A stretch of DNA of 41,088 nucleotides from a virus (Duplodnaviria > Heunggongvirae > Uroviricota > Caudoviricetes). A program made the translations under genes and the position numbers. The stretch is taken from the IMG/VR virus record IMGVR_UViG_2579778622_000013, positions 1-41,088 of that record; one strand, 5' to 3'. The notes below the pieces were generated by a model. That model searched no databases. It was given only the letters and a program-made list of their open reading frames with translations, and had not been told where the DNA came from. Shown piece after piece: positions 1 through 39,951 of the stretch (positions are counted from its first letter, which is position 1; each line of letters begins with the position of its first letter).

Positions 1-1251
1 GTGCTTACCGATACAAAATTAAAAAACCTCAAGCCGCAGGACAAACTGTACAAGGTCTCCGATCGTGACGGGCTGTATGTAGCTGTGCTTACGTCAGGCA
101 CGGTCTCGTTTCGCTATGACTACCGTATCAACGGTCGCCGTGAAACACTGGTAATCGGGCAGTATGGGCGTGACGGTATCAGCCTGGCAGAAGCGCGAGA
201 AGAACTGATTGCTGCAAAGAAGCTGCTTAAAGCAGGCCAGTCTCCGGCTGCGGCTAAACGTGACGGTATCAAAAAGATTCGTGGTGCCGAGACGTTTGCG
301 GTACATACCGACAGTTATATGAAACACGTCATCCTGGCTGACAGTACCCGCGCAATGAAGCAGGCGGTGATCGACCGTGACATACTTCCGGTTCTTGGCA
401 ACAAAATGATGGCTGAAATTACCACATCGATGGTTCGTGATTTGTGTGACCGGATTGTCGAACGCGGTGGTCGGGCAACAGCAGTACAGGCCAGGGAGAT
501 CATCAGCAGCGTATACCGTCACGCCAATGACCGTGGTCATGGTTTGTTTAATCCTGCGGCTGACATTAAACCTTCGTCTATCGCCATATTTAAACCACGA
601 GAGCGAACACTGACACCAGAAGAAATTGGCCTGTTCTTCCGCACGTTGGATGCCATTGGTGCTATGGGCACTATGAAAATGGCTTTAAAACTGGTGCTTA
701 TCACTATGGTTCGTAAGGGCGAATTCACCAATGCAACGTGGGATGAAATAGATTTTAAAAAATGGACATGGACAATTCCTTCAGACCGCATGAAGGGAAG
801 CCGGGCGCATGTTATTTACCTGCCTAAACAGGCTCAGGATATATTGGTCGGGTTGCAGATGTGCGCTGGTGGAAGTGAATATCTGGTTCCTGGTCGTTAC
901 AATTTCAGGAAGCCATTATCTAATGCCGCGCTGAACTCTCTGATCGACAGAACGGTGAAAATAATAAATGAAGATGGTGAGCATATTCAGGACTTCACCG
1001 TACACGATATGCGCCGTACAGCCAGTACGTTGTTGCATGAGGCTGGTTATCCTTCAGACTGGATTGAAAAGGCTCTGGCACATGAGCAGAAAGGTGTGCG
1101 CGCCGTATATAACAAAGCGGAATACGCCAGGCAGCGCGCCTACATGTTGCAGCAGTGGTCCGATATGATTGATTCCTGGATTAACGGGGAGCATACGGAT
1201 CTGATTCCGTTCTCCCCGTCGAAGTTTGAGAAGTGGATGGCGGGGGAATAA
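1..1251 (+). CDS. int: Tyrosine-recombinase phage integrase (P4/CP4-57-like, N-terminal arm-binding domain)
   Basis: 416 aa; N-terminus MLTDTKLKNLKP..DGLY..FRYDYR..SLAEAR matches P4-type integrase N-terminal pattern; C-terminal catalytic region ..VHDMRRTASTLL..VRAVY; GTG start at window position 1. Confidence 0.9.
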   Translation: MLTDTKLKNLKPQDKLYKVSDRDGLYVAVLTSGTVSFRYDYRINGRRETLVIGQYGRDGISLAEAREELIAAKKLLKAGQSPAAAKRDGIKKIRGAETFAVHTDSYMKHVILADSTRAMKQAVIDRDILPVLGNKMMAEITTSMVRDLCDRIVERGGRATAVQAREIISSVYRHANDRGHGLFNPAADIKPSSIAIFKPRERTLTPEEIGLFFRTLDAIGAMGTMKMALKLVLITMVRKGEFTNATWDEIDFKKWTWTIPSDRMKGSRAHVIYLPKQAQDILVGLQMCAGGSEYLVPGRYNFRKPLSNAALNSLIDRTVKIINEDGEHIQDFTVHDMRRTASTLLHEAGYPSDWIEKALAHEQKGVRAVYNKAEYARQRAYMLQQWSDMIDSWINGEHTDLIPFSPSKFEKWMAGE

Positions 1252-5208: not shown

Positions 5209-5289
5209 AACTTGTTACCTCGGTCTGTTACCGTTGAGGTAATAATTATGCGTATCTGGTTTGATGTCAATAGATATGAGTTAAAAAAA

Positions 5290-5361: not shown

Positions 5362-5946
5362 TTATTGTTTGTTTTTTTCGTTCTGGTTGATGACAAATTC
5401 AATGTAACTTTCGATCTTTGCTTTCTCGGTTTCGGGTAACAATGCGTAGCGCGAGCGGTCATAGTTGATAGTCGCAGGGTCGTGCGGGTGAATCAGTAAT
5501 TCATAGCCATGACGCCCGAATGCGGATGCAACATTCTCCAGGGTGGAAATGGAAACGCTGACCTCATTGTTTAACAGGCGGCTGATTGTCACCTGGGCGA
5601 CGCCGGATGCGCGGTGAAGTTTTCCCTGCGTTGAAAGGTCGCGGCTTTCGCTCATCCAGCGTTCCAGGTTGTGAGCCGCCAGCTGACCAATGTCGCTTGG
5701 GCCGACAGGCTGAAAACCTTCCTGAGAAAGCGAGCGATCGATATCAAGCCAGTTACGGGGTTTATTGGCGGCAGCTTCAATTTTTCGTGCAACCTGGTCG
5801 CCGATAACCTTCTTGCCAAGAGCCCAGCGGTTTACCAGATTTGCCTGAGTTCCAAGTTTTTCTGCCATCCGCGTCTGAACACCATTGAATTCACGGTCGA
5901 TCAAGTCGTTGAGATTTTGCCTGCGGACGTCCTGGATACTTTTCAT
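5362..5946 (-). CDS. Prophage repressor (CI-like), tandem HTH, no LexA-type S24 autocleavage domain
   Basis: 194 aa; divergent from cro-like gene with three operators between; HTH-like segments near residues 25-60 and 110-150; no Ala-Gly / GDSM / Lys motifs. Confidence 0.65.
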   Translation of the reverse strand: MKSIQDVRRQNLNDLIDREFNGVQTRMAEKLGTQANLVNRWALGKKVIGDQVARKIEAAANKPRNWLDIDRSLSQEGFQPVGPSDIGQLAAHNLERWMSESRDLSTQGKLHRASGVAQVTISRLLNNEVSVSISTLENVASAFGRHGYELLIHPHDPATINYDRSRYALLPETEKAKIESYIEFVINQNEKNKQ

Positions 5947-6001
5947 TTTCTGGAAAATCGCCTCATATATGAATCAGTAGATGATTCAATTTAAAGCAAT
6001 A

Positions 6002-6064
6002 TTACCCAACAGGTAAATGCACCTCATGGGTAACTATCCTTGATTTTTGTTACCTTATGGGTGA
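6002..6064. promoter_or_regulatory. Tripartite operator region between repressor and cro-like genes
   Basis: Three 15-bp dyads: 6002-6016 TTACCCAACAGGTAA, 6019-6033 GCACCTCATGGGTAA, 6050-6064 TTACCTTATGGGTGA. Confidence 0.65.
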
Positions 6065-6100
6065 ATATTTATTATCTGAAATAAATATCAGGCAATAGCT

Positions 6101-6331
6101 ATGAGCGATAACGGACATTTCGATTTCAAAAAGCACTGGCTTGCACTTACTCCGGATGAGCGTGAAGCCTTCGCACAGGAAGCCGGAACGACGAGTCACT
6201 ATATCCAGACTCACTTAACAGGTAAGCGCAAAATGCCAGGTAAAGTATTGATGAATGGGCTTTTTAAAGCCTGTAAAACAAGACAATGGCTGCGCTCAAA
6301 AGCAGAACTGGCATACTTCTTCTACTCATGA
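6101..6331 (+). CDS. Cro/CII-like HTH regulator
   Basis: 76 aa, divergent from repressor; HTH-like EREAFAQEAGTTSHYIQTHLTGKR. Confidence 0.55.
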   Translation: MSDNGHFDFKKHWLALTPDEREAFAQEAGTTSHYIQTHLTGKRKMPGKVLMNGLFKACKTRQWLRSKAELAYFFYS

Positions 6332-11862: not shown

Positions 11863-12459
11863 ATGATGCCTGCTGAACCTAAAACCTATAAACGCAAATC
11901 AACGCAATTTAAGCCACTAACCGCAATGCAGGAGGCTTATTGCCAGTCATACATCAAAACGCCTGAAAACCAGACTCAGGCAGCGATTAACGCAGGATTC
12001 TCCCCAAATACAGCGGCAGTTAAAGCCAGTGTCATGATGCGCGATGAACGCATTCAAAAACGGATTGCCGAGTTGATGGAGGAGCGCAACAAACGAATGC
12101 GCGTCAGTGCCGATTACGTTCTCATGCGCCTGGTGGAGATCGACCAGATGGACGTGATTGATATCCTCAATGACGATGGGAGCCTTAAGCCAATCCGCGA
12201 GTGGCCGAAAATCTGGCGCACTACGCTTAGTGGCTTTGATCTGTCATCGACCATCATGAACATGAACGAGGATTCGATAGAGACAATCCTCAAAAAAATT
12301 AAATGGCCTGACAAGGTGAAGAACCTCGAACTGATTGGTAAGCACGTCGACGTCAATGCATTCAAAGAACGCCTGGATGTTAATGTGAATGTGACAATTG
12401 CTGATCGCATAGCGGCAGCCAGGAAGCGACTCAAAGAACGTCAGGATGGTAATCAGTGA
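11863..12459 (+). CDS. Terminase small subunit
   Basis: HTH-type segment AINAGFSPNTAAVKASVMMRD typical of terminase small subunits; overlaps terL start (GTGA). Confidence 0.75.
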   Translation: MMPAEPKTYKRKSTQFKPLTAMQEAYCQSYIKTPENQTQAAINAGFSPNTAAVKASVMMRDERIQKRIAELMEERNKRMRVSADYVLMRLVEIDQMDVIDILNDDGSLKPIREWPKIWRTTLSGFDLSSTIMNMNEDSIETILKKIKWPDKVKNLELIGKHVDVNAFKERLDVNVNVTIADRIAAARKRLKERQDGNQ

Positions 12460-13931
12460 CAGATACAGCGTTATCTCCTGAAGAGCAGTTGATCGAGGAT
12501 ATTGCAGGGTTCACTCACGATCCGCTTGGCTATGCCCTCTATGCGTTCCCGTGGGGGGAAGAGGGGACTGAACTGGCACATGCTACCGGCCCACGTCAGT
12601 GGCAGGCTGATGCGTTCCGAGAGATACGTGATCACCTGCAGAATCCAGAGACGCGCTATCAGCCGCTTATGCTGGCACGCGCTTCTGGTCACGGTATTGG
12701 TAAATCCGCATTCATCTCAATGCTGATCAACTGGGGCATGTCCACTTGCGAGGATTGTAAGGTCGTGGTGACCGCCAACACCGACAACCAGCTACGAACG
12801 AAGACCTGGCCGGAAATTATCAAGTGGTCGAACCTTGCTATCACGAAAGACTGGTTTACCTGTACCGCTACTGCGATGTACAGCAATGATCCTGGGCACG
12901 ACAAGCGGTGGCGAGCTGACGCAATCCCCTGGTCTGAGCACAACACTGAGGCATTCGCCGGACTACACAACGAGCGCAAACGCATCATCGTGGTATTCGA
13001 TGAAGCGTCGAACATTGCGGATCTGGTGTGGGAAGTTGCTGAGGGTGCGCTTACGGACGAAGACACTGAGATTATCTGGGTGGCGTTCGGAAACCCTACA
13101 CGTAATACCGGGCGTTTTCGCGAATGTTTCCGCAAATACAAACACCGCTGGAAAACTGCGCAGATTGACAGCCGGACGGTGGAAGGTACTAACAAACAGC
13201 AGTTGCAGAAATGGGTTGATGACTACGGGGAAGACAGCGACTTCGTTAAAATCCGTGTGCGCGGCATATTCCCTGATGCATCTGAATTGCAGTTTATCCC
13301 TACCGGTCTTACTGATGAGGCAATGAAACGGGTGGTAACCGCTGCGCAGGTGGCACATGCTCCGGTGATAATCGGTGTTGACCCGGCATATTCAGGCGTT
13401 GATGACGCGGTGATATACCTGCGGCAGGGGTTGCATAGTAAGGTGCTATGGACTGGCAACAAGACCACTGACGATCTGATTATGGCGAAGCGTATCGCTG
13501 ACTTTGAAGACCAGTATCAGGCTGACGCGGTGTTCATCGACTTCGGTTACGGAACCGGTCTGAAGTCAATCGGTGACGGGTGGGGGCGCACATGGCAACT
13601 TGTTCCGTTCGGTGGTGCGTCAACTGACCCTCAGATGCTCAACAAGCGCGGGGAGATGTTCAACTCATGCAAGACATGGCTGAGGTTGGGCGGGATGCTG
13701 GATGACCAGGAAACAGCGGACGATCTGTCGGCGGCAGAGTACAAAGTTCGCGTGGACGGTAAAATCGTTATCGAACCGAAGGAAGATATCAAAGAACGAC
13801 TTGGGCGTTCGCCTGGTAAAGGCGATGCGCTACTGCTGACGTTTGCTTTCCCGGTGTCAAAGCGCCTGCGACTTCCCGGGCAGCAGAACCAGCAAGGCAA
13901 GGCGCTTACCGAGTACGATCCATATGCTTAG
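12456..13931 (+). CDS. Terminase large subunit
   Basis: 491 aa; Walker A-like GHGIGKS, Walker B-like VVFDEAS, C-terminal nuclease-like region; position between terS and portal. Confidence 0.9.
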   Translation: MTDTALSPEEQLIEDIAGFTHDPLGYALYAFPWGEEGTELAHATGPRQWQADAFREIRDHLQNPETRYQPLMLARASGHGIGKSAFISMLINWGMSTCEDCKVVVTANTDNQLRTKTWPEIIKWSNLAITKDWFTCTATAMYSNDPGHDKRWRADAIPWSEHNTEAFAGLHNERKRIIVVFDEASNIADLVWEVAEGALTDEDTEIIWVAFGNPTRNTGRFRECFRKYKHRWKTAQIDSRTVEGTNKQQLQKWVDDYGEDSDFVKIRVRGIFPDASELQFIPTGLTDEAMKRVVTAAQVAHAPVIIGVDPAYSGVDDAVIYLRQGLHSKVLWTGNKTTDDLIMAKRIADFEDQYQADAVFIDFGYGTGLKSIGDGWGRTWQLVPFGGASTDPQMLNKRGEMFNSCKTWLRLGGMLDDQETADDLSAAEYKVRVDGKIVIEPKEDIKERLGRSPGKGDALLLTFAFPVSKRLRLPGQQNQQGKALTEYDPYA

Positions 13932-14746
13932 TCTTTATTTTTATCCTCGAAACCTGATAATCCAGATAGAACACCAAAGTTATTAAAAACGTTTGGCTTA
14001 CCAGATTTTAATCCGGATAAGTTGTGTTGCTCCAAAAAGTTGCTAATTGTTTGGCCGTTGCCAAGTGCAAGGCTTTTTATTTGAGATTTTTCAGGGTATT
14101 TGAGTTTGTATTCGTCGAAATCATTTTGGAGAGTCTTATATGCCTCATTCATTCTTCCAAGAGTTTCCGATATCTCTTTTAATGAATGATTTAGAGTTGC
14201 TAACTGAGCACTGGCGGATCTCAATTCGTCATCTTTAGCTTTCAACTCGGCAGTCAATTCCCCCATACTATTCTTTGATCGAATAATCTCTTCTTTCATC
14301 TCTTGGATGTCTTTTTCCGCGCCAGTCTTAACTTTGTCGTATGTAACATCTTTTTTAGCCAATAACCTCTGCAGTCTTGTTTCACGCTGGATTTTTCTTG
14401 CCTTCAGGTGATTTTCGATTGAGTCATTATTATCAAGAGGCTTTGCTTGCCATACGTTAATGATATTGTTTACCCATGGTAATAGGCAGCAGATAGCAAT
14501 TACAGATAAGCATGGATAAAACATAACAGTTTTCCATGTGCTGTTATCTGAGATATATGAAATTTTATCTATTATGTTTGATTTGCTAAAAAATAGATAA
14601 AGAATTGATTTCCAGTTGAAGGCGCACCAGGACATAACAAAAGCACCAAGCACAGGGTTTTTGGCTCGATTCACGGCAGTATTGGCAGTAGATAAAAACA
14701 GCTCTTTGAACGATTCAAACATGCTAATTACCTTGAAGTTTTTCAT
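13928..14746 (-). CDS. Membrane-anchored coiled-coil moron protein, function unknown
   Basis: 272 aa from ATG 14746; two hydrophobic helices then long coiled coil; AT-rich; stop overlaps terL stop (convergent). Confidence 0.55.
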   Translation of the reverse strand: MKNFKVISMFESFKELFLSTANTAVNRAKNPVLGAFVMSWCAFNWKSILYLFFSKSNIIDKISYISDNSTWKTVMFYPCLSVIAICCLLPWVNNIINVWQAKPLDNNDSIENHLKARKIQRETRLQRLLAKKDVTYDKVKTGAEKDIQEMKEEIIRSKNSMGELTAELKAKDDELRSASAQLATLNHSLKEISETLGRMNEAYKTLQNDFDEYKLKYPEKSQIKSLALGNGQTISNFLEQHNLSGLKSGKPNVFNNFGVLSGLSGFEDKNKD

Positions 14747-14750
14747 GATT

Positions 14751-14765
14751 ATACCTTTAAGGTAA
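14751..14765. promoter_or_regulatory. Operator-like palindrome ATACCTTTAAGGTAA at moron gene start
   Basis: Dyad immediately 5' of ATG 14746 on the minus strand, overlapping the RBS and a TATAAT-like hexamer. Confidence 0.4.
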
Positions 14766-14781
14766 TTTGCGGTCATCAAGC

Positions 14782-14805
14782 AAAAAAATGCCCGGCGAAC
14801 CGGGC
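14782..14805 (-). terminator. Rho-independent terminator (minus strand)
   Basis: Stem GCCCGG/CCGGGC, loop CGAA, followed by a T-run on the minus strand. Confidence 0.5.
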
Positions 14806-14876
14806 GAACTGGAAGCAATGAGTTATGCCTTCCGTGGCTGTACTGGTTTACAGCATGAAGTCATCGCAATGGCGTC

Positions 14877-14925
14877 CTGCTGTAAAAAGGGCGGTGATAG
14901 TCCTTCAAGGGAAACTATCACCGCC
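14877..14925 (-). terminator. 12-bp perfect stem-loop with T-run downstream of the tRNA
   Basis: GGCGGTGATAGT / ACTATCACCGCC with 12-nt loop, followed on the minus strand by CCTTTTTAC. Confidence 0.5.
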
Positions 14926-14968
14926 AAGCACCTGGAACTTCTGGCATCACGGTCCTTAGGCGTGATTC

Positions 14969-15045
14969 TGGCGTGGCATGCAGGATTCGAACCTGCGACC
15001 AACCGCTTAGAAGTCGGTTGCTCTGTCCAACTGAGCTAATGCCAC
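14969..15045 (-). tRNA. tRNA-Arg (anticodon UCU), phage-encoded argU-like
   Basis: 77 nt with CCA; cloverleaf GTGGCAT/ATGCCAC acceptor stem, D-arm GCTC..GAGC, anticodon loop CTTCTAA, T-arm GCAGG TTCGAAT CCTGC; similar but not identical to E. coli argU as recalled. Confidence 0.85.
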
Positions 15046-15367
15046 AACGCTGAGAGCACTTAGCCTGTTAAGGCACCACACTTTGTCGCGGCTCCATAAA
15101 TGCTCTCATCGTTGCACCCTCGTCTCTTCCGAGGTGTCACACCGAATCGCCGGGATGGTGAATCCCCGTGCGCGGAATAAAACCGCTCGACTTGCACATT
15201 CCGGCTATCTGGTTCGTTTGCCCGAGCAAGGGAGGGTGCCCCTTAAACGTATCCAGACCGCTATCGGCGCATGTGCCATACGCCGTACTGCTCAAAATAA
15301 AAGCTCACTCCACCTGTTCAATTTAACGACAAGCCAGTCAGGTTAGTAACCGGAATGAACCCTTTGC

Positions 15368-15382
15368 TTACCTGAAAGGTAA
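15368..15382. promoter_or_regulatory. Operator-like palindrome TTACCTGAAAGGTAA upstream of portal operon
   Basis: Perfect dyad ~90 nt upstream of the 15473 gene. Confidence 0.45.
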
Positions 15383-15472
15383 TAATTCGTGCGTTAAATG
15401 TCAACCATCTACGATAAATAAATCATATGTGGTTAAATTGGTAATAATTTAATTGCGTACGGAGTCATTGAT

Positions 15473-15679
15473 ATGTGCATGGGTAGCTCACCATCAGTGC
15501 CTGCAACACCAGAAGTTCAGGCAGCACCACAGGAGCAGGATGCCGCCGTTGTTGATGCCCGCGACGAAGAAACACGTCGCCGTCGCGCTGCTGCTGGTCG
15601 TAGTTCTACGCTGCTTACCGGTTCTCAGGGCGACACATCAACCGCTAATACCAGCGGTAAAACGCTGCTTGGTCAGTAA
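15473..15679 (+). CDS. Small protein preceding portal
   Basis: 68 aa; GGAG RBS; shares the initiation context CGGAGTCATTGA(T/A)ATG with the portal gene. Confidence 0.5.
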   Translation: MCMGSSPSVPATPEVQAAPQEQDAAVVDARDEETRRRRAAAGRSSTLLTGSQGDTSTANTSGKTLLGQ

Positions 15680-15693
15680 CCGGAGTCATTGAA

Positions 15694-17373
15694 ATGGCGG
15701 AAACAACTAAAGAGCGATTGAACAAACAGTTCGCACAACTTGAAAGCGAGCGTCAGTCGTTCGAGCCGCACTGGCGCGAGTTGAGTGATTACATCAACCC
15801 GCGTGGTTCCCGCTTTCTGACTTCTGAGGTCAACCGTAACGATCGACGCAATACACGCATTATTGATTCGACCGGGACTATGGCGGCGCGCACTCTCGCC
15901 AGCGGCATGATGTCAGGCATCACAAGCCCCGCGCGTCCGTGGTTTCGCCTGGCTACGCCAGATCCTGAAATGATGGATTATGGCCCTGTTAAGTTGTGGC
16001 TTGAGGCGGTGCAGAACCGCATGAACGATATGTTCAATAAGTCGAATCTCTATCAGTCTCTGCCGCAGTTATACGGAAGCCTCGGCACATACAGCACTGG
16101 TGCAATGGCAGTGCTGGAGGATGACGAGGACATCATTCGCACAATGCCATTCCCGATAGGCAGTTACTACCTGGCTAACTCACCTCGTGGCAGTGTGGAC
16201 ACCTGTTTTCGCAAGTTCTCTATGACTGTTCGTCAGCTTGTTCAGGAGTTCGGGCTAAATAACGTCAGCGAATCCGTAAAAAGCATGTGGGAAAGCGGCA
16301 CCTACGAGAAGTGGATTGAAGTGATGCATTCGGTTTACCCGAACATTGACCGCGATACATCGAAGCTGGATAGCAAGAACAAGCCATTCAAATCGGTTTA
16401 TTACGAGGTTGGTGGCGATAACGACAAGTTGTTGCGCGAGTCCGGATTCGATGAGTTTCCAATTATGGCTCCGCGCTGGGAAGTTAACGGCGAAGATGTT
16501 TATGGATCATCATGCCCGGGTATGCTGGCGCTTGGACCTGTTAAGGCATTGCAGCTTCTCCAGAAGCGCAAGTCGCAGTTGATTGATAAAGCCACCAATC
16601 CGCCGATGGTTGCTCCGACTTCCCTCAAGAATCAGCGTGCCTCCCTTCTTCCTGGCGACATCACGTATATCGATCAGATTACTGGTCAGGATGGTTTCAG
16701 GCCTGCTTATCTGGTTAACCCCAGTACAGCAGATTTGGTGGCAGACATTCAGGACACCCGTCAAATCATTAACAGCGCCTACTTTGTCGATCTGTTCATG
16801 ATGTTGCAGAACATCAATACCCGCTCGATGCCTGTTGAAGCGGTGATCGAAATGAAAGAAGAAAAACTTCTGATGTTGGGGCCGGTTCTGGAGCGTCTGA
16901 ACGACGAATGTCTTAATCCTCTCATTGACCGCGCTTTCTCGATGATGGTGCGTAAAAACATGCTGCCGCCACCGCCTGACGCGATGGAAGGCATTCCCCT
17001 GAAGGTCGAATACATTTCCGTCATGGCTCAGGCGCAGAAGTCTATCGGCCTGTCCAGTCTGGCGTCCACGGTTAACTTCATTGGTCAACTTGCGCAAGCG
17101 AAACCAGAAGCTCTCGACAAACTCAACGTTGATCAGGCGATCGATGCATTCGCTGATATGTCCGGAGTGTCTCCAACCGTCATTGTTCCGCAGGAACAGG
17201 TTGAGCAGGCTCGCCAGCAACGGGCACAGCAGCAACAGCAACAACAAATGATGGCGGTGGGGATGGCGGCGGCACAGGGTGCCAAGACGCTAAGCGAAGC
17301 TAAAACTTCGGATCCGAGTGTTTTGACAGCTATGGCGAATGCAGTTAGTGGTCAGGGTGGGCAATCACAATGA
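15694..17373 (+). CDS. Portal (head-to-tail connector) protein
   Basis: 559 aa, first large gene after terminase; size and position as T7 gp8. Confidence 0.8.
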   Translation: MAETTKERLNKQFAQLESERQSFEPHWRELSDYINPRGSRFLTSEVNRNDRRNTRIIDSTGTMAARTLASGMMSGITSPARPWFRLATPDPEMMDYGPVKLWLEAVQNRMNDMFNKSNLYQSLPQLYGSLGTYSTGAMAVLEDDEDIIRTMPFPIGSYYLANSPRGSVDTCFRKFSMTVRQLVQEFGLNNVSESVKSMWESGTYEKWIEVMHSVYPNIDRDTSKLDSKNKPFKSVYYEVGGDNDKLLRESGFDEFPIMAPRWEVNGEDVYGSSCPGMLALGPVKALQLLQKRKSQLIDKATNPPMVAPTSLKNQRASLLPGDITYIDQITGQDGFRPAYLVNPSTADLVADIQDTRQIINSAYFVDLFMMLQNINTRSMPVEAVIEMKEEKLLMLGPVLERLNDECLNPLIDRAFSMMVRKNMLPPPPDAMEGIPLKVEYISVMAQAQKSIGLSSLASTVNFIGQLAQAKPEALDKLNVDQAIDAFADMSGVSPTVIVPQEQVEQARQQRAQQQQQQQMMAVGMAAAQGAKTLSEAKTSDPSVLTAMANAVSGQGGQSQ

Positions 17374-31298: not shown

Positions 31299-31383
31299 TA
31301 TTCGGAATTGTATTGTTCGGAAGAATAATAAAATAACTAGTTAATTTGTGGATTGGTGCTGTTTTTCCATGATAGGGGTAATT

Positions 31384-31764
31384 ATGAGAAAAGTATTTTT
31401 GATTTTTGGATTTATGCTTCTCGTTGGATGCCAGTCAGCTGCACAGTTTGAAAGAAATATGCTTACGTGGCGCGGGCAGAGTATAGACGCAATGGTTCAG
31501 CAGTGGGGGTATCCTCAGGGAGAGCTTACATCTCCAGATGGAAACAGAGTGTATGTTTACTCAAGCTCTGGTAGTTATAACGTACCACAAACCACAACGT
31601 ATAATACTACGTCTAATCTAATTGGTAATACTATATATTCAAACACATACGCAACAACTGATGGCGGTTATACACTCCATTTCAGTTGCTCTGTTTACGT
31701 TGAGTTTGGTGCTGATAAGATTATTAAAAATGTTACATGGCGCGGTAATAATTGCGTTGCGTGA
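31384..31764 (+). CDS. Moron lipoprotein (signal peptide plus lipobox LLVGC)
   Basis: MRKVFLIFGFMLLVGCQS...; Ser/Thr/Tyr/Asn-rich mature part; AT-rich. Confidence 0.6.
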   Translation: MRKVFLIFGFMLLVGCQSAAQFERNMLTWRGQSIDAMVQQWGYPQGELTSPDGNRVYVYSSSGSYNVPQTTTYNTTSNLIGNTIYSNTYATTDGGYTLHFSCSVYVEFGADKIIKNVTWRGNNCVA

Positions 31765-31772
31765 CATGTCAC

Positions 31773-31797
31773 AGGCCGCTTTCGCGGCCTTGTTTTT
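31773..31797 (+). terminator. Rho-independent terminator after lipoprotein gene
   Basis: Stem AGGCCGC/GCGGCCT, loop TTTC, then TGTTTTT. Confidence 0.6.
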
Positions 31798-31957
31798 AAC
31801 GAATGCCACCGTCACCCGGGCGGGAATCCGCAGAACGCCCACCGCAGCGGGAGCCGTCAGCGGCAGTATCGCTGTCGTGCTGACAACGACCGGCAAAGGC
31901 CTGAGTTGAAGCTACCAGAGACAACAAAACGAACAGTGCAGCAAATGCTTTTTTCAT
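31796..31957 (-). CDS. Small secreted Cys-containing peptide (53 aa)
   Basis: MKKAFAALFVLLSLVASTQAFA signal-peptide-like N-terminus; weak RBS. Confidence 0.3.
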   Translation of the reverse strand: MKKAFAALFVLLSLVASTQAFAGRCQHDSDTAADGSRCGGRSADSRPGDGGIR

Positions 31958-32027
31958 TGTGAAATTTCCATCTATAAGCCACCTCAATGTGGCGTCAATG
32001 AGTGTAGCACTGACTTTTGTTTCGTCC

Positions 32028-32050
32028 ACAAAAAAGCCCGCGCTGCGGGC
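32028..32050 (-). terminator. Rho-independent terminator after the 210-aa moron gene
   Basis: Stem AGCCCGC/GCGGGCT followed by a T-run on the minus strand. Confidence 0.6.
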
Positions 32051-32055
32051 TTCTA

Positions 32056-32688
32056 TTAATGCAGTTTATCTTTGCTTATAACCAGTAGTCTGTGGGTATG
32101 CACATCTTTATCACTGCCCCAACAGAAATCAGCCCACTGGCTATAGAAATCATCCCATGATGCCATGAAGCTAAGAGGTCTATCTTCTTCAGAGCCATCT
32201 GAAACGTATACATTATATCCTGGGGTGTTTATAGCCCAAGAAATCATTCTTTCCCAGAATCTTCTCCCATCGATTGTTTGTTGCTCATCAGATACAACGA
32301 TCGCATATTGCTCTAGGAAGAACTGAAAAAAAATCTGAGGCAAACCATGAACAGCACGGTCATGAATAACATTAGGCGTACGCCATACCATGATCTGCGT
32401 ACATGTTCTTTTGGCTTCGACGATATCTTCCCGAAAGATTAACTTAACCGCATACACCGTTTCTGGAGTATCGCTGGTAGTAATCATTCTGTAATGATCG
32501 CCATTACAAGATTTTACAAGGCGATAACCATAAGGTGTTGTGAATCCCGGAAGAACGAAATCAACCACACCTTTCGCTAAGTAGCTTTCGGTGTGACTAG
32601 TGTTCTTCTCAGACATGTTCAGTTTTCTATCGAAATCTGCTTCTGGGATAATGTATGGCATCGCTTTTCTTGTTGTATTTGTTCTCAT
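32056..32688 (-). CDS. Hypothetical cytoplasmic moron protein (210 aa)
   Basis: Strong GGGAGGA RBS; AT-rich; no recognisable motif; own operator-containing upstream region. Confidence 0.6.
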   Translation of the reverse strand: MRTNTTRKAMPYIIPEADFDRKLNMSEKNTSHTESYLAKGVVDFVLPGFTTPYGYRLVKSCNGDHYRMITTSDTPETVYAVKLIFREDIVEAKRTCTQIMVWRTPNVIHDRAVHGLPQIFFQFFLEQYAIVVSDEQQTIDGRRFWERMISWAINTPGYNVYVSDGSEEDRPLSFMASWDDFYSQWADFCWGSDKDVHTHRLLVISKDKLH

Positions 32689-32747
32689 TTCGTCCTCCCA
32701 TGTTTGGCTACAGGACGCGTTTTGAAGGGAAGATTAAAAATGCTTTC

Positions 32748-32762
32748 TTACCCTTGAGGTAA
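32748..32762. promoter_or_regulatory. Operator-like palindrome TTACCCTTGAGGTAA
   Basis: Perfect dyad ~60 nt upstream of the 32688 start codon. Confidence 0.45.
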
Positions 32763-32834
32763 TAGTACGCTATTCACCCCCAGTCTGCAATCTGTACAGA
32801 ATTATTTAAAGGCACATCCCTGTGCCGCCGCCCG

Positions 32835-33545
32835 TCAGAAGAACCCTGCCTTGTCGTTGATGTACTCCGCGTGCGTCTGGATATCACGCAGGCATTTGCT
32901 CACACCGACGATGTAGCAGAACATGGTGGTCAGCTCCGCCGCCGCGCCCGATACGTCGTGCCCGTCGTCCTGTAACTGGTTCAGCAGATTCATCAGCAGT
33001 GAGTTCTCCGTCAGGCCGAGAACACCAGACGGCGAGTGAATCAGGCTGCGGTAGCCGGGCTTCAGCGGGGCGCTGTAGGTTTTGTTCTCTATCTTCATTG
33101 CCTGCATCACTGCTGACGCCGTGGCGTTGGCTACCTGGTCGGCAACCATCTTTATGCGTTCTTCCTGCGGGAGCGAGTTTTTAATGTAACTTCCGGTGCG
33201 GCGGATCTGAGGAAGAACCTCACCTGTAACCCATTTACGAAAGCGGTAGGGGATAGTGCCTGGTGTCACTGCGTCGCGGCAGCGGAGGATCAGTGTGTAG
33301 AGGCCTGACTCGGAGATGATGTTGATCTCTTTTACTCGGCTGTCAAAAATTGCACGATGTTCATGCCCTATGTTGAACATAGACCTTTCATCATCATCCA
33401 GTTTTTCAAGTGCTTGGGTGACGTTTTGGATACGCAGCGCACTACAAACGTCTTGGGCTACAAACCATGGTTGGCCATCGATAATGATGGAACGGATAGG
33501 GTTAACAGATTCAAATTTGAAGATGGCAGTTTGAGCATTAGCCAT
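32835..33545 (-). CDS. Antirepressor, Bro-N/AntA-type N-terminal domain
   Basis: N-terminus MANAQTAIFKFE..IRSIIIDGQPWFVAQDVCSALRI typical of Bro-N/AntA; ATG 33545 with GGAGA RBS. Confidence 0.75.
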   Translation of the reverse strand: MANAQTAIFKFESVNPIRSIIIDGQPWFVAQDVCSALRIQNVTQALEKLDDDERSMFNIGHEHRAIFDSRVKEINIISESGLYTLILRCRDAVTPGTIPYRFRKWVTGEVLPQIRRTGSYIKNSLPQEERIKMVADQVANATASAVMQAMKIENKTYSAPLKPGYRSLIHSPSGVLGLTENSLLMNLLNQLQDDGHDVSGAAAELTTMFCYIVGVSKCLRDIQTHAEYINDKAGFF

Positions 33546-33942
33546 GGTGGTTATCTCCACTTAGTGATTTTAATCACCACCGCAACGCCAATTACTGGTG
33601 GTGAACTGGACAAGGTTGGCGTACCGGCCTAAGTGGTACCGGCGTCCTTTCGGACCCCTGCCCAGCCCACCATAATTCGGATATAGCTGTGCTTAACGCA
33701 TAAAAAAACCACGTCTGGCGTGGTATGCGCCACTTAGTAACTCGGGACGCCAATCCCGGCACTGGATTTTGCCAGTACCCGATTACTATGGCACAAGAGG
33801 AGTGCGATGTAAATTTACCGCAAAGGTAATGATAAACGCGTAGAAATATCAAAATCAACCGTATTTGGTTGATTGCGTTTAACGCTTGATCACCTGAAAG
33901 CAAGATATTACCTTTAAGGTAATGTTATTGTGAGGAAAAGCA
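33546..33942. promoter_or_regulatory. Divergent control region and long antirepressor leader
   Basis: Dyads at 33815-33829 and 33908-33922; minus-strand intrinsic terminator 33702-33724; palindrome GTGATTTTAATCAC at 33564-33577; three mutually complementary 9-mers. Confidence 0.45.
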
Positions 33943-34671
33943 ATGGAAGTTTTCTGGATAGTTGTTGGTGTGGTTGCGGTGATTATTTACGTTATCAACC
34001 AGAACAAGACTAAGATCTCTGATCGTACGGTCGTTAATCATAACAAAACGATAAAGACCGAAGATGGGGAGATAACGATTAATCGTACACAGGTGATAGA
34101 ACACACCTCTACTCAGTTTCAAAAAACTGGAGGTAATGCGCCTAATATTTCCGCACCTCCTGCTTATGATAGTGCGGTAATCCAGACATATTATAAACAG
34201 CAGGAGTTAGCAAAAGAGAGGCAACTGATTCAGCCAAAGCCATTTACAGCAGAGCTTCCACCTGGAGTGTCAACGCGTCCGGCATATCATGGAAGATTCC
34301 CTGGTGATGACACATCGTCTCAGTCACCTAAAAAAGCACCTCAGGCAGTATCAGAGCCAGCAAGAATACCTTCTGTATCGCCGCCAAAAGAAGAATCAGC
34401 TAACAGAGTTTCAAGTGGTAGCAAGCAGTGCTTGCGATGCAGAATAAATCTTCCATATGAAAAATTCAGGAAATCGTCAAAAAATCCAGATGGATTGACT
34501 AAGTGGTGTGCAAGGTGTCTCGATGGCCCAAAGAATACACGCCATATGAAGTGGTGCCCAATTTGTAATGTCCGCAGAAAACGAACAAGCTTTTACCCTA
34601 ATAATCAAAATGCGGACGGCTTAATGGCATGGTGCAAAACGTGCTGGGATGAGCACAAAGCGAAACGATAG
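33943..34671 (+). CDS. Membrane-anchored protein with tandem CxxC zinc-ribbon repeats
   Basis: N-terminal TM helix VFWIVVGVVAVIIYVI; two repeats C-x2-C..DGL..WC-x2-C at the C-terminus. Confidence 0.6.
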   Translation: MEVFWIVVGVVAVIIYVINQNKTKISDRTVVNHNKTIKTEDGEITINRTQVIEHTSTQFQKTGGNAPNISAPPAYDSAVIQTYYKQQELAKERQLIQPKPFTAELPPGVSTRPAYHGRFPGDDTSSQSPKKAPQAVSEPARIPSVSPPKEESANRVSSGSKQCLRCRINLPYEKFRKSSKNPDGLTKWCARCLDGPKNTRHMKWCPICNVRRKRTSFYPNNQNADGLMAWCKTCWDEHKAKR

Positions 34672-34694
34672 GCCGCTCTTGCGGCCTTTAAATT
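34671..34694 (+). terminator. Rho-independent terminator
   Basis: GGCCGC-TCTT-GCGGCC then TTTAAATTT. Confidence 0.55.
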
Positions 34695-34951
34695 TACCGG
34701 GTTTGTTTTCGTAATTGTTCGGCACAATAGTCGAGATGTGTTTGCAGATCCCGCATAGACATCTGTGAGCTGGTGACGTAGTTAATCAGTGCAGTCAGTT
34801 CGGCAAGTGGGCCATCGACATTAAATCCATCCTTATCGAGATCCCGGAGTAATTTCATCAAGTGCGATCCCTCCACCAGTGACCTGACGCCTCCCGGCGT
34901 GTGAATCCTTTCGGTAAATCCGTCTTCCAGTGGATAGTGATACCGCTGCAT
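34694..34951 (-). CDS. Small protein homologous to the antirepressor C-terminal domain; LexA-boxed (candidate SOS antirepressor)
   Basis: 85 aa from ATG 34951 with GGAGA RBS; TPGGVRSLVEGSHLMKLLRDLDKDGFNVDGPLAELT..MRDLQTHLDY parallels the Ant C-terminus SPSGVLGLTENSLLMNLLNQLQDDGHDVSGAAAELT..LRDIQTHAEY. Confidence 0.6.
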   Translation of the reverse strand: MQRYHYPLEDGFTERIHTPGGVRSLVEGSHLMKLLRDLDKDGFNVDGPLAELTALINYVTSSQMSMRDLQTHLDYCAEQLRKQTR

Positions 34952-34972
34952 CTTATCTTCTCCATGCAATAA

Positions 34973-34988
34973 CTGTATATTTATACAG
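34973..34988. promoter_or_regulatory. LexA (SOS) box CTGTATATTTATACAG
   Basis: Matches CTGT-N8-ACAG with AT-rich spacer; 22 nt upstream of the 34951 start codon. Confidence 0.65.
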
Positions 34989-35027
34989 TATCAAATAATT
35001 TGTTTGCTATCCAGCACGTTTTGCAAA

Positions 35028-35042
35028 TCACCTGAAAGGTAA
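35028..35042. promoter_or_regulatory. Operator-like palindrome TCACCTGAAAGGTAA
   Basis: Dyad in the divergent region between the small SOS gene and the tailspike. Confidence 0.4.
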
Positions 35043-35146
35043 TATCTATTCGTATTTACAGTCTTTCTATCCATATGTGGTTTTTCAGGTAATAGAATAA
35101 CCAGATATGCGGCGCAACGGGCGCTGCGACTATCTGGAGATTTAAC

Positions 35147-37462
35147 ATGACGGTCTCAACCGAAGTTAACCACAACGAATACACAGGTAACGGCGTTACG
35201 ACATCGTTTCCGTATACTTTTCGAATTTTCAGAAAATCAGACCTGGTTGTTCAGGTGTCTGACCTGAACGGGAACGTAACAGAATTGGTTCTGGATACCG
35301 GTTATACGGTAACTGGGGCGGGCACTTATAGTGGCGGTTCAGTGGTTCTGCCGTCTCCGCTTGCTGCTGGCTGGCGAATTACGATAGATCGTGTGCTTGA
35401 TGTAGTGCAGGAGACAGATCTTCGCAATCAGGGAAAATTTTTCCCCGAAGTGCATGAAGATGCTTTTGACTACCTGACGATGCTGATCCAGCAATGTTTT
35501 GGGTGGTTCAGACGTGCATTGATGAAACCATCTTTGCTTGCAAAATATTACGATGCAAAGCAAAACAAAATTTCTAACCTTGCAGATCCATCACTTGAGC
35601 AGGACGCTGTAAATAATCGCTCAATGCGTAATTATGTCGATGCTGCAATCGCCGGGGTTGTTGGTGGTTTTGGTTGGTTTATTCAGTATGGTTCTGGAGC
35701 AGTATACCGAACGTTCCAGGATAAGATGAGAGACACCGTTAGTGTTCGCGATTTTGGGGCAAAAGGCGATGGTATAACAGATGATACATCTGCATTGATC
35801 CTGGCTGCAGAATATGCACGAGAATCATCCAGAACATTACGAGCGGAAGGTAATTTTATTATTACGGAGACATTAAATCTTCGTAATGTCAGCCTCGAAA
35901 TGACCAATGCTGTTTTTACCATATCCCACTCAGGAATAGGGGTATTGCTTGGCGGGAATGCATCAAACCCTAACAACCCAAGACAAAACTTCGGAACGAT
36001 TATCAGAAATTCTGGTATTTCATCTGAAACGACACCGGATATTCGTATTATCGGGGCAAAAGGGCAGCATATAAACATTGAGCGTTGCGACTACTTACAG
36101 TTATATGCAAATTATAATGCTTCGGTGGCATCGACGGATTATTCAATAGCATACTCAACCTTTAACCTGAAAAAGGTCGATACAATTCATTTTCTTGGAG
36201 TTGAGAAAGGATGGATAAATGAAAACTATTTTTATCTGAATCGTACGAATAATATCATTTTCGCTGATAATCCATATCATCATAACCACAATAAGTTTTA
36301 TGGTGGAACTATGGAGGGGGCAGGTAAAATTGATATTCAAAGAGGTGATAACAATTACTTCTACGGGTTTCGTTTTGAACGAGATCCATCATCCCAAACT
36401 AACCAACAGTTGATAATTAACTTTGGTGAATATACGTGGAATAACTCAATTGAAGCTACATGGTTAAGTTCTCCTTACTATACAAATGAGCCATACAATC
36501 CATCACCTTACACTTATGTCGAGGTAACTGATAATGGCAAGGGGAATGCAGTATTTCATATTCAGGAAAATATATCCGATGAAGTAACATTGTTTTCTTT
36601 AAATGCTAACACCCCATTTATATCCAGTGCTAACAATGGAGAAGTTGGTGTATTAGCATTTCAAACAGATGTAGATGGTTTATATAATATCCGTCACCTG
36701 GTTTCTTCTAAGTTTGCTTTTATGCGGAATTTTGGGTTGTTATGGGAATCTGGAGATGTACCAGTAAGAAATGGTGATATGTTTACATTCTCAGCAGATA
36801 CGGCATCGTTTCGCATTTACCTGTATGCATTAGATGGAGATGGGAATGTCATAACTTCACAAACAGAAGCAATAACTTCTTCTATGCAATGGGATTCATC
36901 TAACCATAGATATGCTACTGTTGCTAACATTTCTTCCATTAAGATCAGGATTAATAATGAAGGGGTTCCAGTTAGTGCAATTCGTTTAGCTGTGTATTCT
37001 GGTGGTAATGTAGCGAATACTGCATTTTCATGGCTATGCTTAACTGGTAGATATTACAAAAATAGCACATCCTTGCCAAGGAAAAGCAAAGATAACTTCA
37101 CCTTAAAACAAGGAAAAGCAATTACTTATTATAGTGATACTGATATTAGTATGGCTAACATTGGTTCAGGAATTACCTGTTATAAAACCGATTTATCTGA
37201 ACTCAAAATTAATCTTGTAAGGGGCAGGTATTTAGTGAAATCAATTTCAGGCAGTGAAATATATGTATACCAAGGAACAGTCACTTATTACCCTCCATTC
37301 AGTGATGTCAAATTGGTATATACGGATGGGGTTGAAAATAAATTATTAGATGTGCAAAACATCTCTTCAGAAAAGATTACTCTTGCAGATACAGTACCAT
37401 CAGCTATATCTGCAGGTGATTTTGTAGATATTATTGTTACAAAGACGAAATCTATTTTATGA
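35147..37462 (+). CDS. Tailspike with N-terminal particle-binding domain and pectate-lyase-like beta-helix (polysaccharide depolymerase)
   Basis: 771 aa; N-terminal segment ..RNQGKFFPEVHEDAFDYLT..; VSVRDFGAKGDGITDDTSAL pectate-lyase-superfamily hallmark; AT-rich C-terminal two-thirds. Confidence 0.85.
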   Translation: MTVSTEVNHNEYTGNGVTTSFPYTFRIFRKSDLVVQVSDLNGNVTELVLDTGYTVTGAGTYSGGSVVLPSPLAAGWRITIDRVLDVVQETDLRNQGKFFPEVHEDAFDYLTMLIQQCFGWFRRALMKPSLLAKYYDAKQNKISNLADPSLEQDAVNNRSMRNYVDAAIAGVVGGFGWFIQYGSGAVYRTFQDKMRDTVSVRDFGAKGDGITDDTSALILAAEYARESSRTLRAEGNFIITETLNLRNVSLEMTNAVFTISHSGIGVLLGGNASNPNNPRQNFGTIIRNSGISSETTPDIRIIGAKGQHINIERCDYLQLYANYNASVASTDYSIAYSTFNLKKVDTIHFLGVEKGWINENYFYLNRTNNIIFADNPYHHNHNKFYGGTMEGAGKIDIQRGDNNYFYGFRFERDPSSQTNQQLIINFGEYTWNNSIEATWLSSPYYTNEPYNPSPYTYVEVTDNGKGNAVFHIQENISDEVTLFSLNANTPFISSANNGEVGVLAFQTDVDGLYNIRHLVSSKFAFMRNFGLLWESGDVPVRNGDMFTFSADTASFRIYLYALDGDGNVITSQTEAITSSMQWDSSNHRYATVANISSIKIRINNEGVPVSAIRLAVYSGGNVANTAFSWLCLTGRYYKNSTSLPRKSKDNFTLKQGKAITYYSDTDISMANIGSGITCYKTDLSELKINLVRGRYLVKSISGSEIYVYQGTVTYYPPFSDVKLVYTDGVENKLLDVQNISSEKITLADTVPSAISAGDFVDIIVTKTKSIL

Positions 37463-39800: not shown

Positions 39801-39951
39801 CATGGCATTTTTCATGGTACTGATTTCCGGTGACGGTATATAAAACGGTACGGGAAAAATTGAGATTTGGAAAAATGTTATCACTCAATTGGTTATGGTT
39901 ATCGTAAATAATTGAGTGGGAATGATTTGACCCTGCACTATGAATGAACAA

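Follow-up and report, generated by a model that had tools for sequence, protein, structure and literature searches.

The 41,088-nt stretch of DNA analysed here (the window) very probably, at a rough probability of 0.9, carries the SPC32H-type lytic switch of epsilon15-like phages. A stand-alone antirepressor gene of 85 codons (ant, 34694..34951, minus strand) has a LexA (SOS) box in front of it, and the immunity repressor gene (rep, 5362..5946, minus strand) encodes a 194-aa homologue of SPC32H Rep that lacks an S24 domain for autocleavage. In the lysogen, Rep would sit on ATTACC-N5-GGTAAT operators and keep the early promoters off, and host LexA, bound to the SOS box at 34971-34990 overlapping the ant promoter, would keep ant silent. 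Upon DNA damage RecA would become active and LexA would cleave itself; the 85-aa Ant would then be made, bind Rep and free it from DNA without Rep cleavage, and the lytic genes would be turned on. A second antirepressor would be kept in check on its own by a C4 RNA from the same transcript, through pairing with the ribosome-binding site of its gene, and Rep at the adjoining operator probably represses it as well.

The mechanism is not new: it is established for SPC32H, and a pair of one SOS-gated and one RNA-gated antirepressor is known from N15. In the SPC32H studies, the Ant tetramer reportedly binds Rep dimers and breaks the DNA-binding Rep tetramer, with Rep left uncleaved. The order of events in SPC32H (LexA cleavage, Ant production, inhibition of the repressor) is attributed to Kim & Ryu 2013 (J Virol 87:11775) in a passage of PMC7380047, and the disruption of the Rep tetramer by an Ant tetramer is touched on in a passage of PMC9638917; the mechanism is also treated in a bioRxiv discussion. 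The sequence-only reading had proposed induction by a LexA-repressed antirepressor that acts on a non-cleavable repressor, and as far as sequence comparison goes this is supported, both proteins matching chains of PDB entry 5D50 and the box being orthologous. Its claim to novelty, that such a system is found "here in a podovirus-like prophage", has to be given up because the switch was already worked out in the epsilon15-like podovirus SPC32H.

Positions 32000-35200 of the window are 92-98% identical to Escherichia phages TL-2011b, HEMP4, vB_EcoP_ZX5 and phiV10, all four of which are epsilon15-like podoviruses of the genus Uetakevirus; the ant region is 98% identical to that of vB_EcoP_ZX5. 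A tyrosine integrase gene (1..1251) stands at the start of the window. The att core ATTGAGTGGGAATGATT lies at 39911-39927, and after it come two genes of host type, one for a DUF5384 protein and one for a glycine-zipper lipoprotein; the same core has been described at the guaA 3' end in phiV10, epsilon15 and ZX5 (PMC9782041). With the integrase at one end, and the att core and two host-type genes at the other, the window is, by its sequence, an epsilon15/phiV10-like (Uetakevirus) prophage, close to complete and inserted at E. coli guaA.

The ORF at 34694..34951 encodes 85 aa, as first read, and GGAGAAG (34963-34957) lies upstream of its ATG. The only solved structure matched by the product was chain 5D50_E in PDB ("Anti-repressor protein", E=3.5e-46), and the product is 87% identical to SPC32H Ant. 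Entry 5D50 is the crystal complex of Rep and Ant from Salmonella phage SPC32H, and 5D4Z is a Rep fragment; the two genes are named ant and rep in the SPC32H GenBank record. The dN/dS ratio of ant relative to SPC32H is 0.06 with nearly saturated synonymous sites, which indicates strong purifying selection. A small ant that is merely a decaying fragment of a Bro-N gene is ruled out by this ratio together with its genus-wide conservation and the lineage-specific occurrence of the Bro-N fusion. A Pfam search with the small Ant gave no family (DUF724, at E=0.005, fell well short of the cut-off and was dropped), and in PHROGs the protein belongs to phrog_450, whose function is listed as unknown. The Pfam, PDB and PHROG searches recovered the SPC32H-Ant family alone, with no homology to Tum/DinI or GfoA. 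The gene is divergent from the tailspike gene, at an intergenic distance of ~195 bp, and is located far from rep-cro; the arrangement in SPC32H and epsilon15 is alike. At its other end, a GC-rich hairpin (34670..34687), likely a bidirectional terminator, separates the 3' ends of ant and of ORF 33943..34671 (plus strand).

The second antirepressor gene (32835..33545, minus strand) encodes a 236-aa protein in which Bro-N is joined to an SPC32H-Ant-like C-terminal domain (residues ~155-231). Its identification as a Bro-N antirepressor agrees with Pfam, where Bro-N (PF02498) covers residues 22-117 of the 241-aa ORF (32835..33560) with 71.4 bits against a cut-off of 25.6 (E=1e-19). The 85-aa Ant aligned with residues 160-233 of this ORF (43% identity over 74 aa, E=4e-16), corresponding to residues 155-228 of the 236-aa protein if translation begins at the ATG at 33545, and residues 155-231 of the latter matched 5D50_E at E=2.2e-13. 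The homology of the small protein to the C-terminal part of the larger one, first seen over ~60 residues, is thereby confirmed, and its length is corrected to 74 aa. Compared with ORF4 of vB_EcoP_ZX5, the 236-aa protein shows 81% identity, and the C-terminal 167 aa are nearly identical. Over-expression of ZX5 ORF4, a Bro-N antirepressor, lowered the number of lysogens from 10^9 to 10^6 (~1000-fold), and vB_EcoP_ZX5 can be induced by mitomycin C from 10^7 to 10^9 PFU/mL (PMC9782041).

The effect of the ZX5 Bro-N antirepressor on lysogeny (PMC9782041) is one argument for taking Bro-N::Ant as the main inducer, with the LexA-gated Ant acting as a mere trigger or modulator, or in trans on the repressors of co-resident prophages. 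Trans-acting antirepressors are documented in Gifsy phages (PMC3121763), and conservation is much higher for Ant than for Rep (87% vs. 42% relative to SPC32H), as expected if Ant were not tuned to a single Rep. However, the Salmonella members SPC32H and epsilon15 carry the small Ant only, at one place per record, and the consensus scan of the window found no LexA box ahead of the Bro-N gene. In SPC32H the small Ant is reportedly sufficient. On balance we regard a leading role of Bro-N::Ant as unlikely, and we retain the LexA-gated small Ant as the inducing antirepressor.

The repressor itself gave a full-length match to 5D50_A ("Repressor", E=4e-42), with 42% identity to SPC32H Rep. Because of this figure, compared with 87% for Ant, we can only extrapolate from SPC32H that this Ant binds this Rep. 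Pfam identified HTH_3 at residues 106-147 and, less strongly, an HTH-like segment at residues 21-61, in keeping with the two HTH-like segments noted previously. Neither a Peptidase_S24 match in Pfam nor an Ala-Gly dipeptide in the sequence was found, which places Rep outside the S24/Ala-Gly autocleaving class and agrees with the earlier statement that autocleavage motifs are missing. Cleavage of Rep by RecA-stimulated autocleavage as in lambda, with the LexA box and ant as accessories, is the default paradigm for temperate phages, and we found no support for it here; in view of the missing S24 peptidase domain and Ala-Gly, and of a homologue described as uncleaved and inactivated by Ant (a passage of PMC7380047; the 5D50 complex), it is very improbable. 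Divergent from rep is a cro-like gene of 76 codons (6101..6331, plus strand; phrog_35, transcriptional repressor).

A palindrome search of the rep-cro intergenic region found ATTACCCAACAGGTAAA and two degenerate copies of it (6001..6065), and these operators align with three ATTACC-N5-GGTAAT sites in SPC32H. With up to two mismatches allowed, ATTACC-N5-GGTAAT was found 14 times in the window vs. 1.1 expected, and 13 times vs. 0.5 expected in the 16-kb stretch of SPC32H that holds the early region (KC911856 22400-38689). The copies in the window, 17 bp each, start at 5227, 5289, 6001, 6386, 8332, 8394, 11830, 11848, 14750, 15367, 32747, 33814, 33907, and 35027. Nearly all of them are intergenic and they are spread across the whole prophage beyond rep-cro, a pattern that is the same in SPC32H. 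Because of this spread, Rep may control many promoters, including those beside both antirepressor genes and gene 32056..32688. The copy between ant and the tailspike gene (ATCACCTGAAAGGTAAT, 35027..35043) has half-sites that are invariant in an alignment of nine phages, and the equivalent site is annotated as a "repressor" protein_bind feature in the epsilon15 record. A perfect copy (ATTACCTTTAAGGTAAT, 33907..33923) is found 20 bp upstream of ORF 33943..34671. Since the palindrome is shared by both phages, the rep-cro sites align and the epsilon15 site is annotated, this Rep and SPC32H Rep probably read similar operators despite their 42% identity.

To locate LexA boxes, the whole window was scanned with the 20-bp consensus TACTGTATATATATACAGTA at a threshold of 3 mismatches, with 100 shuffles as control. 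The 20-mer at 34971..34990, which reads TACTGTATAAATATACAGTT on the ant strand, has 2 mismatches to the consensus and is the sole site in 41 kb with 3 or fewer mismatches; no site this close appeared in the 100 shuffles. Its core CTGT-N8-ACAG lies at 34973-34988 (CTGTATATTTATACAG). Measured from its near edge, the box is 22 nt away from the A of the ant ATG (a 21-nt gap); the tailspike start is at a distance of ~160 nt. The near-consensus box reported at 34973-34988, 22 nt from the 85-aa gene, is therefore confirmed and is unique in the window. Two other occurrences of CTGT-N8-ACAG, at 14838 and 19380, were not accepted as LexA boxes, since both exceed 3 mismatches to the 20-mer, have GC-rich centres and lack a sensible downstream gene.

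We aligned the intergenic region between tailspike gene and ant from the window, phiV10, SPC32H, SPC32N, epsilon15, Tyrion, BUCT554, and two Klebsiella phages. The position of the LexA box is identical in all nine, the Enterobacter and Klebsiella relatives included, and the DNA flanking the conserved box shows ~67-75% identity across phages. SPC32N and SPC32H have a single difference in this region, a C to A change (ACAG to AAAG) within the LexA box. Kim & Ryu 2013 reportedly showed that the SPC32N box mutation renders Ant constitutive and gives a virulent-like phage. The predicted ant promoter (34985..35013, minus strand), as read from the sequence, is composed of the -35 element TGGATA (35013-35008), a 17-nt spacer and the extended -10 element TGaTACTGT (34993-34985). 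Its hexamers are weak, and a generic sigma-70 scan did not call it; the assignment is made because both elements are conserved in the nine-phage alignment, where CTGGA.A and TG.TA.TGT are invariant. From these positions we infer that the ant promoter overlaps the LexA box and that LexA binds at 34971-34990. The site does lie in intergenic DNA common to ant and the tailspike gene, but a chance AT-rich inverted repeat, or an element that controls the divergent tailspike gene instead of ant, deserves hardly any weight given the empty shuffles (0/100), the conservation of the box in diverged flanks, its distance of 22 nt from the ant start vs. ~160 nt from the tailspike start, and the SPC32N change within it.

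For the Bro-N paralogue, the sequence-only reading expected a different control, and an isrK/C4 antisense-RNA cassette with Rep-operator-like palindromes was indeed found. Upstream of the Bro-N gene, Rfam reported an isrK-like RNA, a c4-a1b1 element and C4, with C4 and isrK above their gathering thresholds. The isrK-like leader sRNA (33702..33791, minus strand; RF01394, 63.5 bits; RF03163, 43.4 bits) contains a1/b1 target sites and, at 33724-33708, an intrinsic terminator; the isrK match itself spans 33702-33778. The C4 antisense RNA of the P1 immI type (33594..33677, minus strand; RF01695, 66 bits vs. a gathering score of 45) lies 49 nt ahead of the start of the Bro-N gene and belongs to the same predicted transcript. 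The C4 hairpin loop CCACUUAG is the exact complement of CUAAGUGG at 33737-33730 and 33564-33557, and the C4 segment ACGCCAA complements UUGGCGU at 33753-33747 and 33591-33585. The copies nearer the gene are the candidate C4 target sites a2 (UUGGCGU, 33591-33585) and b2 (CUAAGUGG, 33564-33557), assigned by complementarity and covariation (33557..33591, minus strand). In the fold, the target pairs are exact 7-8 nt complements of single-stranded regions of C4. C4 and the Bro-N gene have no ORF between them, at the position of icd, so that b2 overlaps the antirepressor gene's own Shine-Dalgarno sequence, GGAG.

In ZX5, phiV10, TL-2011b, and one Klebsiella phage, the Bro-N gene has the same isrK/C4 cassette in front of it. 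The C4 loop and target are CCACUUAG with CUAAGUGG in this prophage and CCUUUUAG with CUAAAAGG in ZX5, phiV10 and TL-2011b; in the Klebsiella phage the loop is CCGUUUAG and the targets are CUAAACGG and CUAAGCGG. The concerted change of the loop and both targets across phages is good evidence, at the level of sequence, for functional antisense pairing of the P1/P7 immI type, with specificities that differ from lineage to lineage. The loop and targets of this prophage differ from those of ZX5, phiV10 and TL-2011b although the controlled Ant-like domain is nearly identical, which suggests distinct immI specificities among otherwise similar phages. Palindrome and promoter scans (33785..33830, minus strand) also placed a Rep-operator-like palindrome (ATTACCTTTGCGGTAAA, 33830-33814) against the -35 element of a predicted isrK/C4 promoter, TTTACA-17-(TG)CATAGT (33813-33785), whose start is predicted at ~33778, the same place where the isrK model begins. 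This layout is kept in five of five phages (the window, ZX5, phiV10, TL-2011b, and the Klebsiella phage). The elements point to control of the paralogue by antisense RNA plus, probably, Rep.

The prophage shares with SPC32H an orthologous Ant (87%), a homologous two-domain Rep without S24, the position of the LexA box, the divergence of ant from the tailspike gene, the ATTACC/GGTAAT half-sites and the genus Uetakevirus. SPC32H differs in its host (Salmonella vs. E. coli here), in its Rep (42% identical), and in having neither an isrK/C4-controlled Bro-N::Ant-like gene nor the two extra ORFs between ant and the virion block. In N15, according to passages of PMC4488713 and PMC3121763 that cite Mardanov & Ravin 2007 and Ravin et al. 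1999, induction needs AntC of the SOS regulon, and an immA anti-immunity operon is controlled by a small processed RNA. The two-tier logic, a LexA-controlled AntC plus a separate antirepressor operon under a small processed RNA, is the same, but N15 is a linear-plasmid siphovirus and the two antirepressors here share a homologous domain. AntC was discarded as a homologue of the small Ant, N15 being absent among the 35 records found by tblastn, and is an analogue only. LexA-repressed small proteins that bind a non-cleavable repressor are also known as Tum of 186 and GfoA/GftA of Gifsy phages (PMC3121763); this likeness is functional only, and Pfam, PDB and PHROG searches detected no sequence relationship.

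With the immI system of P1/P7, the cassette has in common a C4 RNA over the Rfam threshold with flanking a1/b1 and a2/b2 targets, loop/target covariation between phages as expected for immunity specificity, and an operator of the main repressor at the operon promoter (here the Rep-operator-like palindrome). The gene order in P1 is C4-icd-ant whereas icd is missing here, and a Bro-N/SPC32H-Ant fusion and Rep stand in the places of P1 Ant and C1. In the Gifsy-1 isrK-orf45-anrP locus, too, a leader RNA of the isrK kind, ending in a terminator, precedes an antirepressor-like gene (PMC4825925), but no orf45-type ORF precedes the Bro-N gene here and a C4 match lies between. Because the intervening sequence matches the C4 model, we favor a P1-type repressive reading over activation of the IsrK type.

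Several observations concern the accessory genes. ORF 33943..34671 encodes 242 aa (phrog_6762) with repeated CxxC zinc-ribbon motifs and weak endonuclease VII / Lar-like matches. This ORF is an insertion that separates ant from the isrK/C4 cassette and is absent from this place in ZX5 and phiV10; its counterpart in TL-2011b is covered by a misc_feature ("similar to hypothetical protein") with no CDS. TL-2011b also has an Arc repressor of the P22 type together with an Ant gene and sar antisense RNA (segment 1038-2222, 1209-1276; Rfam 44.8 bits for sar), which brings its antirepressor modules to three, each differently controlled. Between the virion block and the Bro-N antirepressor, ORFs 32056..32688 (minus strand), 31796..32029 (minus strand) and 31348..31764 (plus strand) belong to phrog_1349, phrog_3117 ("membrane associated") and phrog_3716, respectively, and a Rep-operator-like palindrome (32747-32763) is located upstream of the first. 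In a different part of the prophage, ~1.7 kb (13931-15694) separate the portal gene from a 491-aa ORF (12456..13931) and include a tRNA-Arg(TCT) gene (14969-15045, minus strand). Nothing in this interval looks convincingly protein-coding (ORF 13928..14818, minus strand, is without Pfam match), and it is flanked by Rep-operator-like palindromes at 14750 and 15367.

The small Ant was found by tblastn in 35 of 50,697 phage records, all of them epsilon15-like. E. coli and Klebsiella phages and Tyrion mostly have two or three matching places per record (small Ant plus fusion), and Salmonella phages have one. A stand-alone Ant of 84 aa (P0138) looks recombinant in the alignment, its N-terminal half resembling the LexA-type Ant and its C-terminal half the Bro-N-fusion type. 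When 1.84 billion representative proteins were searched exhaustively with a profile, only 65 clusters with the Ant domain were found, in several of which the domain is C-terminal to Bro-N, AntA, Phage_pRha or ORF6N. A word-indexed search with the C-terminal domain of the Bro-N protein returned 25 mostly short proteins and under-samples fusions relative to the exhaustive profile search. We found no Pfam family that matches the Ant-like C-terminal module. Domain swapping is typical of the Bro network (PMC10111431).

The role of the second antirepressor is likely anti-immunity, or amplification after Rep loss. The domain shared by both antirepressors suggests two further ideas, which we offer tentatively and hold to be rather doubtful at present. 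The E. coli/Klebsiella branch may have a two-stage circuit that uses one Rep-binding domain twice, first in the LexA-gated Ant and then in a Bro-N::Ant whose translation is set by C4 through phage-specific loop/target pairs; more generally, SPC32H Ant might represent, in free form, a C-terminal module of the Bro network that binds repressors and is as yet undescribed. If the two-stage reading were true, more Bro-N::Ant would be transcribed once Rep had left the operator that adjoins the isrK/C4 promoter, providing a feed-forward lock-in of induction as well as immI-type anti-immunity on superinfection.

Among complete E. coli genomes, 534 of 5,426 match part of the region and 128 have the full arrangement. 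The small Ant is annotated as "hypothetical protein" in 12 RefSeq E. coli genomes among the matches listed, and in most phage records too. The study of vB_EcoP_ZX5 examined the Bro-N antirepressor alone and leaves the LexA-gated gene unmentioned (PMC9782041); because of that absence, the ZX5 work is open to re-reading. The value of the finding is mostly one of annotation: recognition of the switch would explain how these guaA-integrated, serotype-converting prophages respond to DNA-damaging antibiotics.
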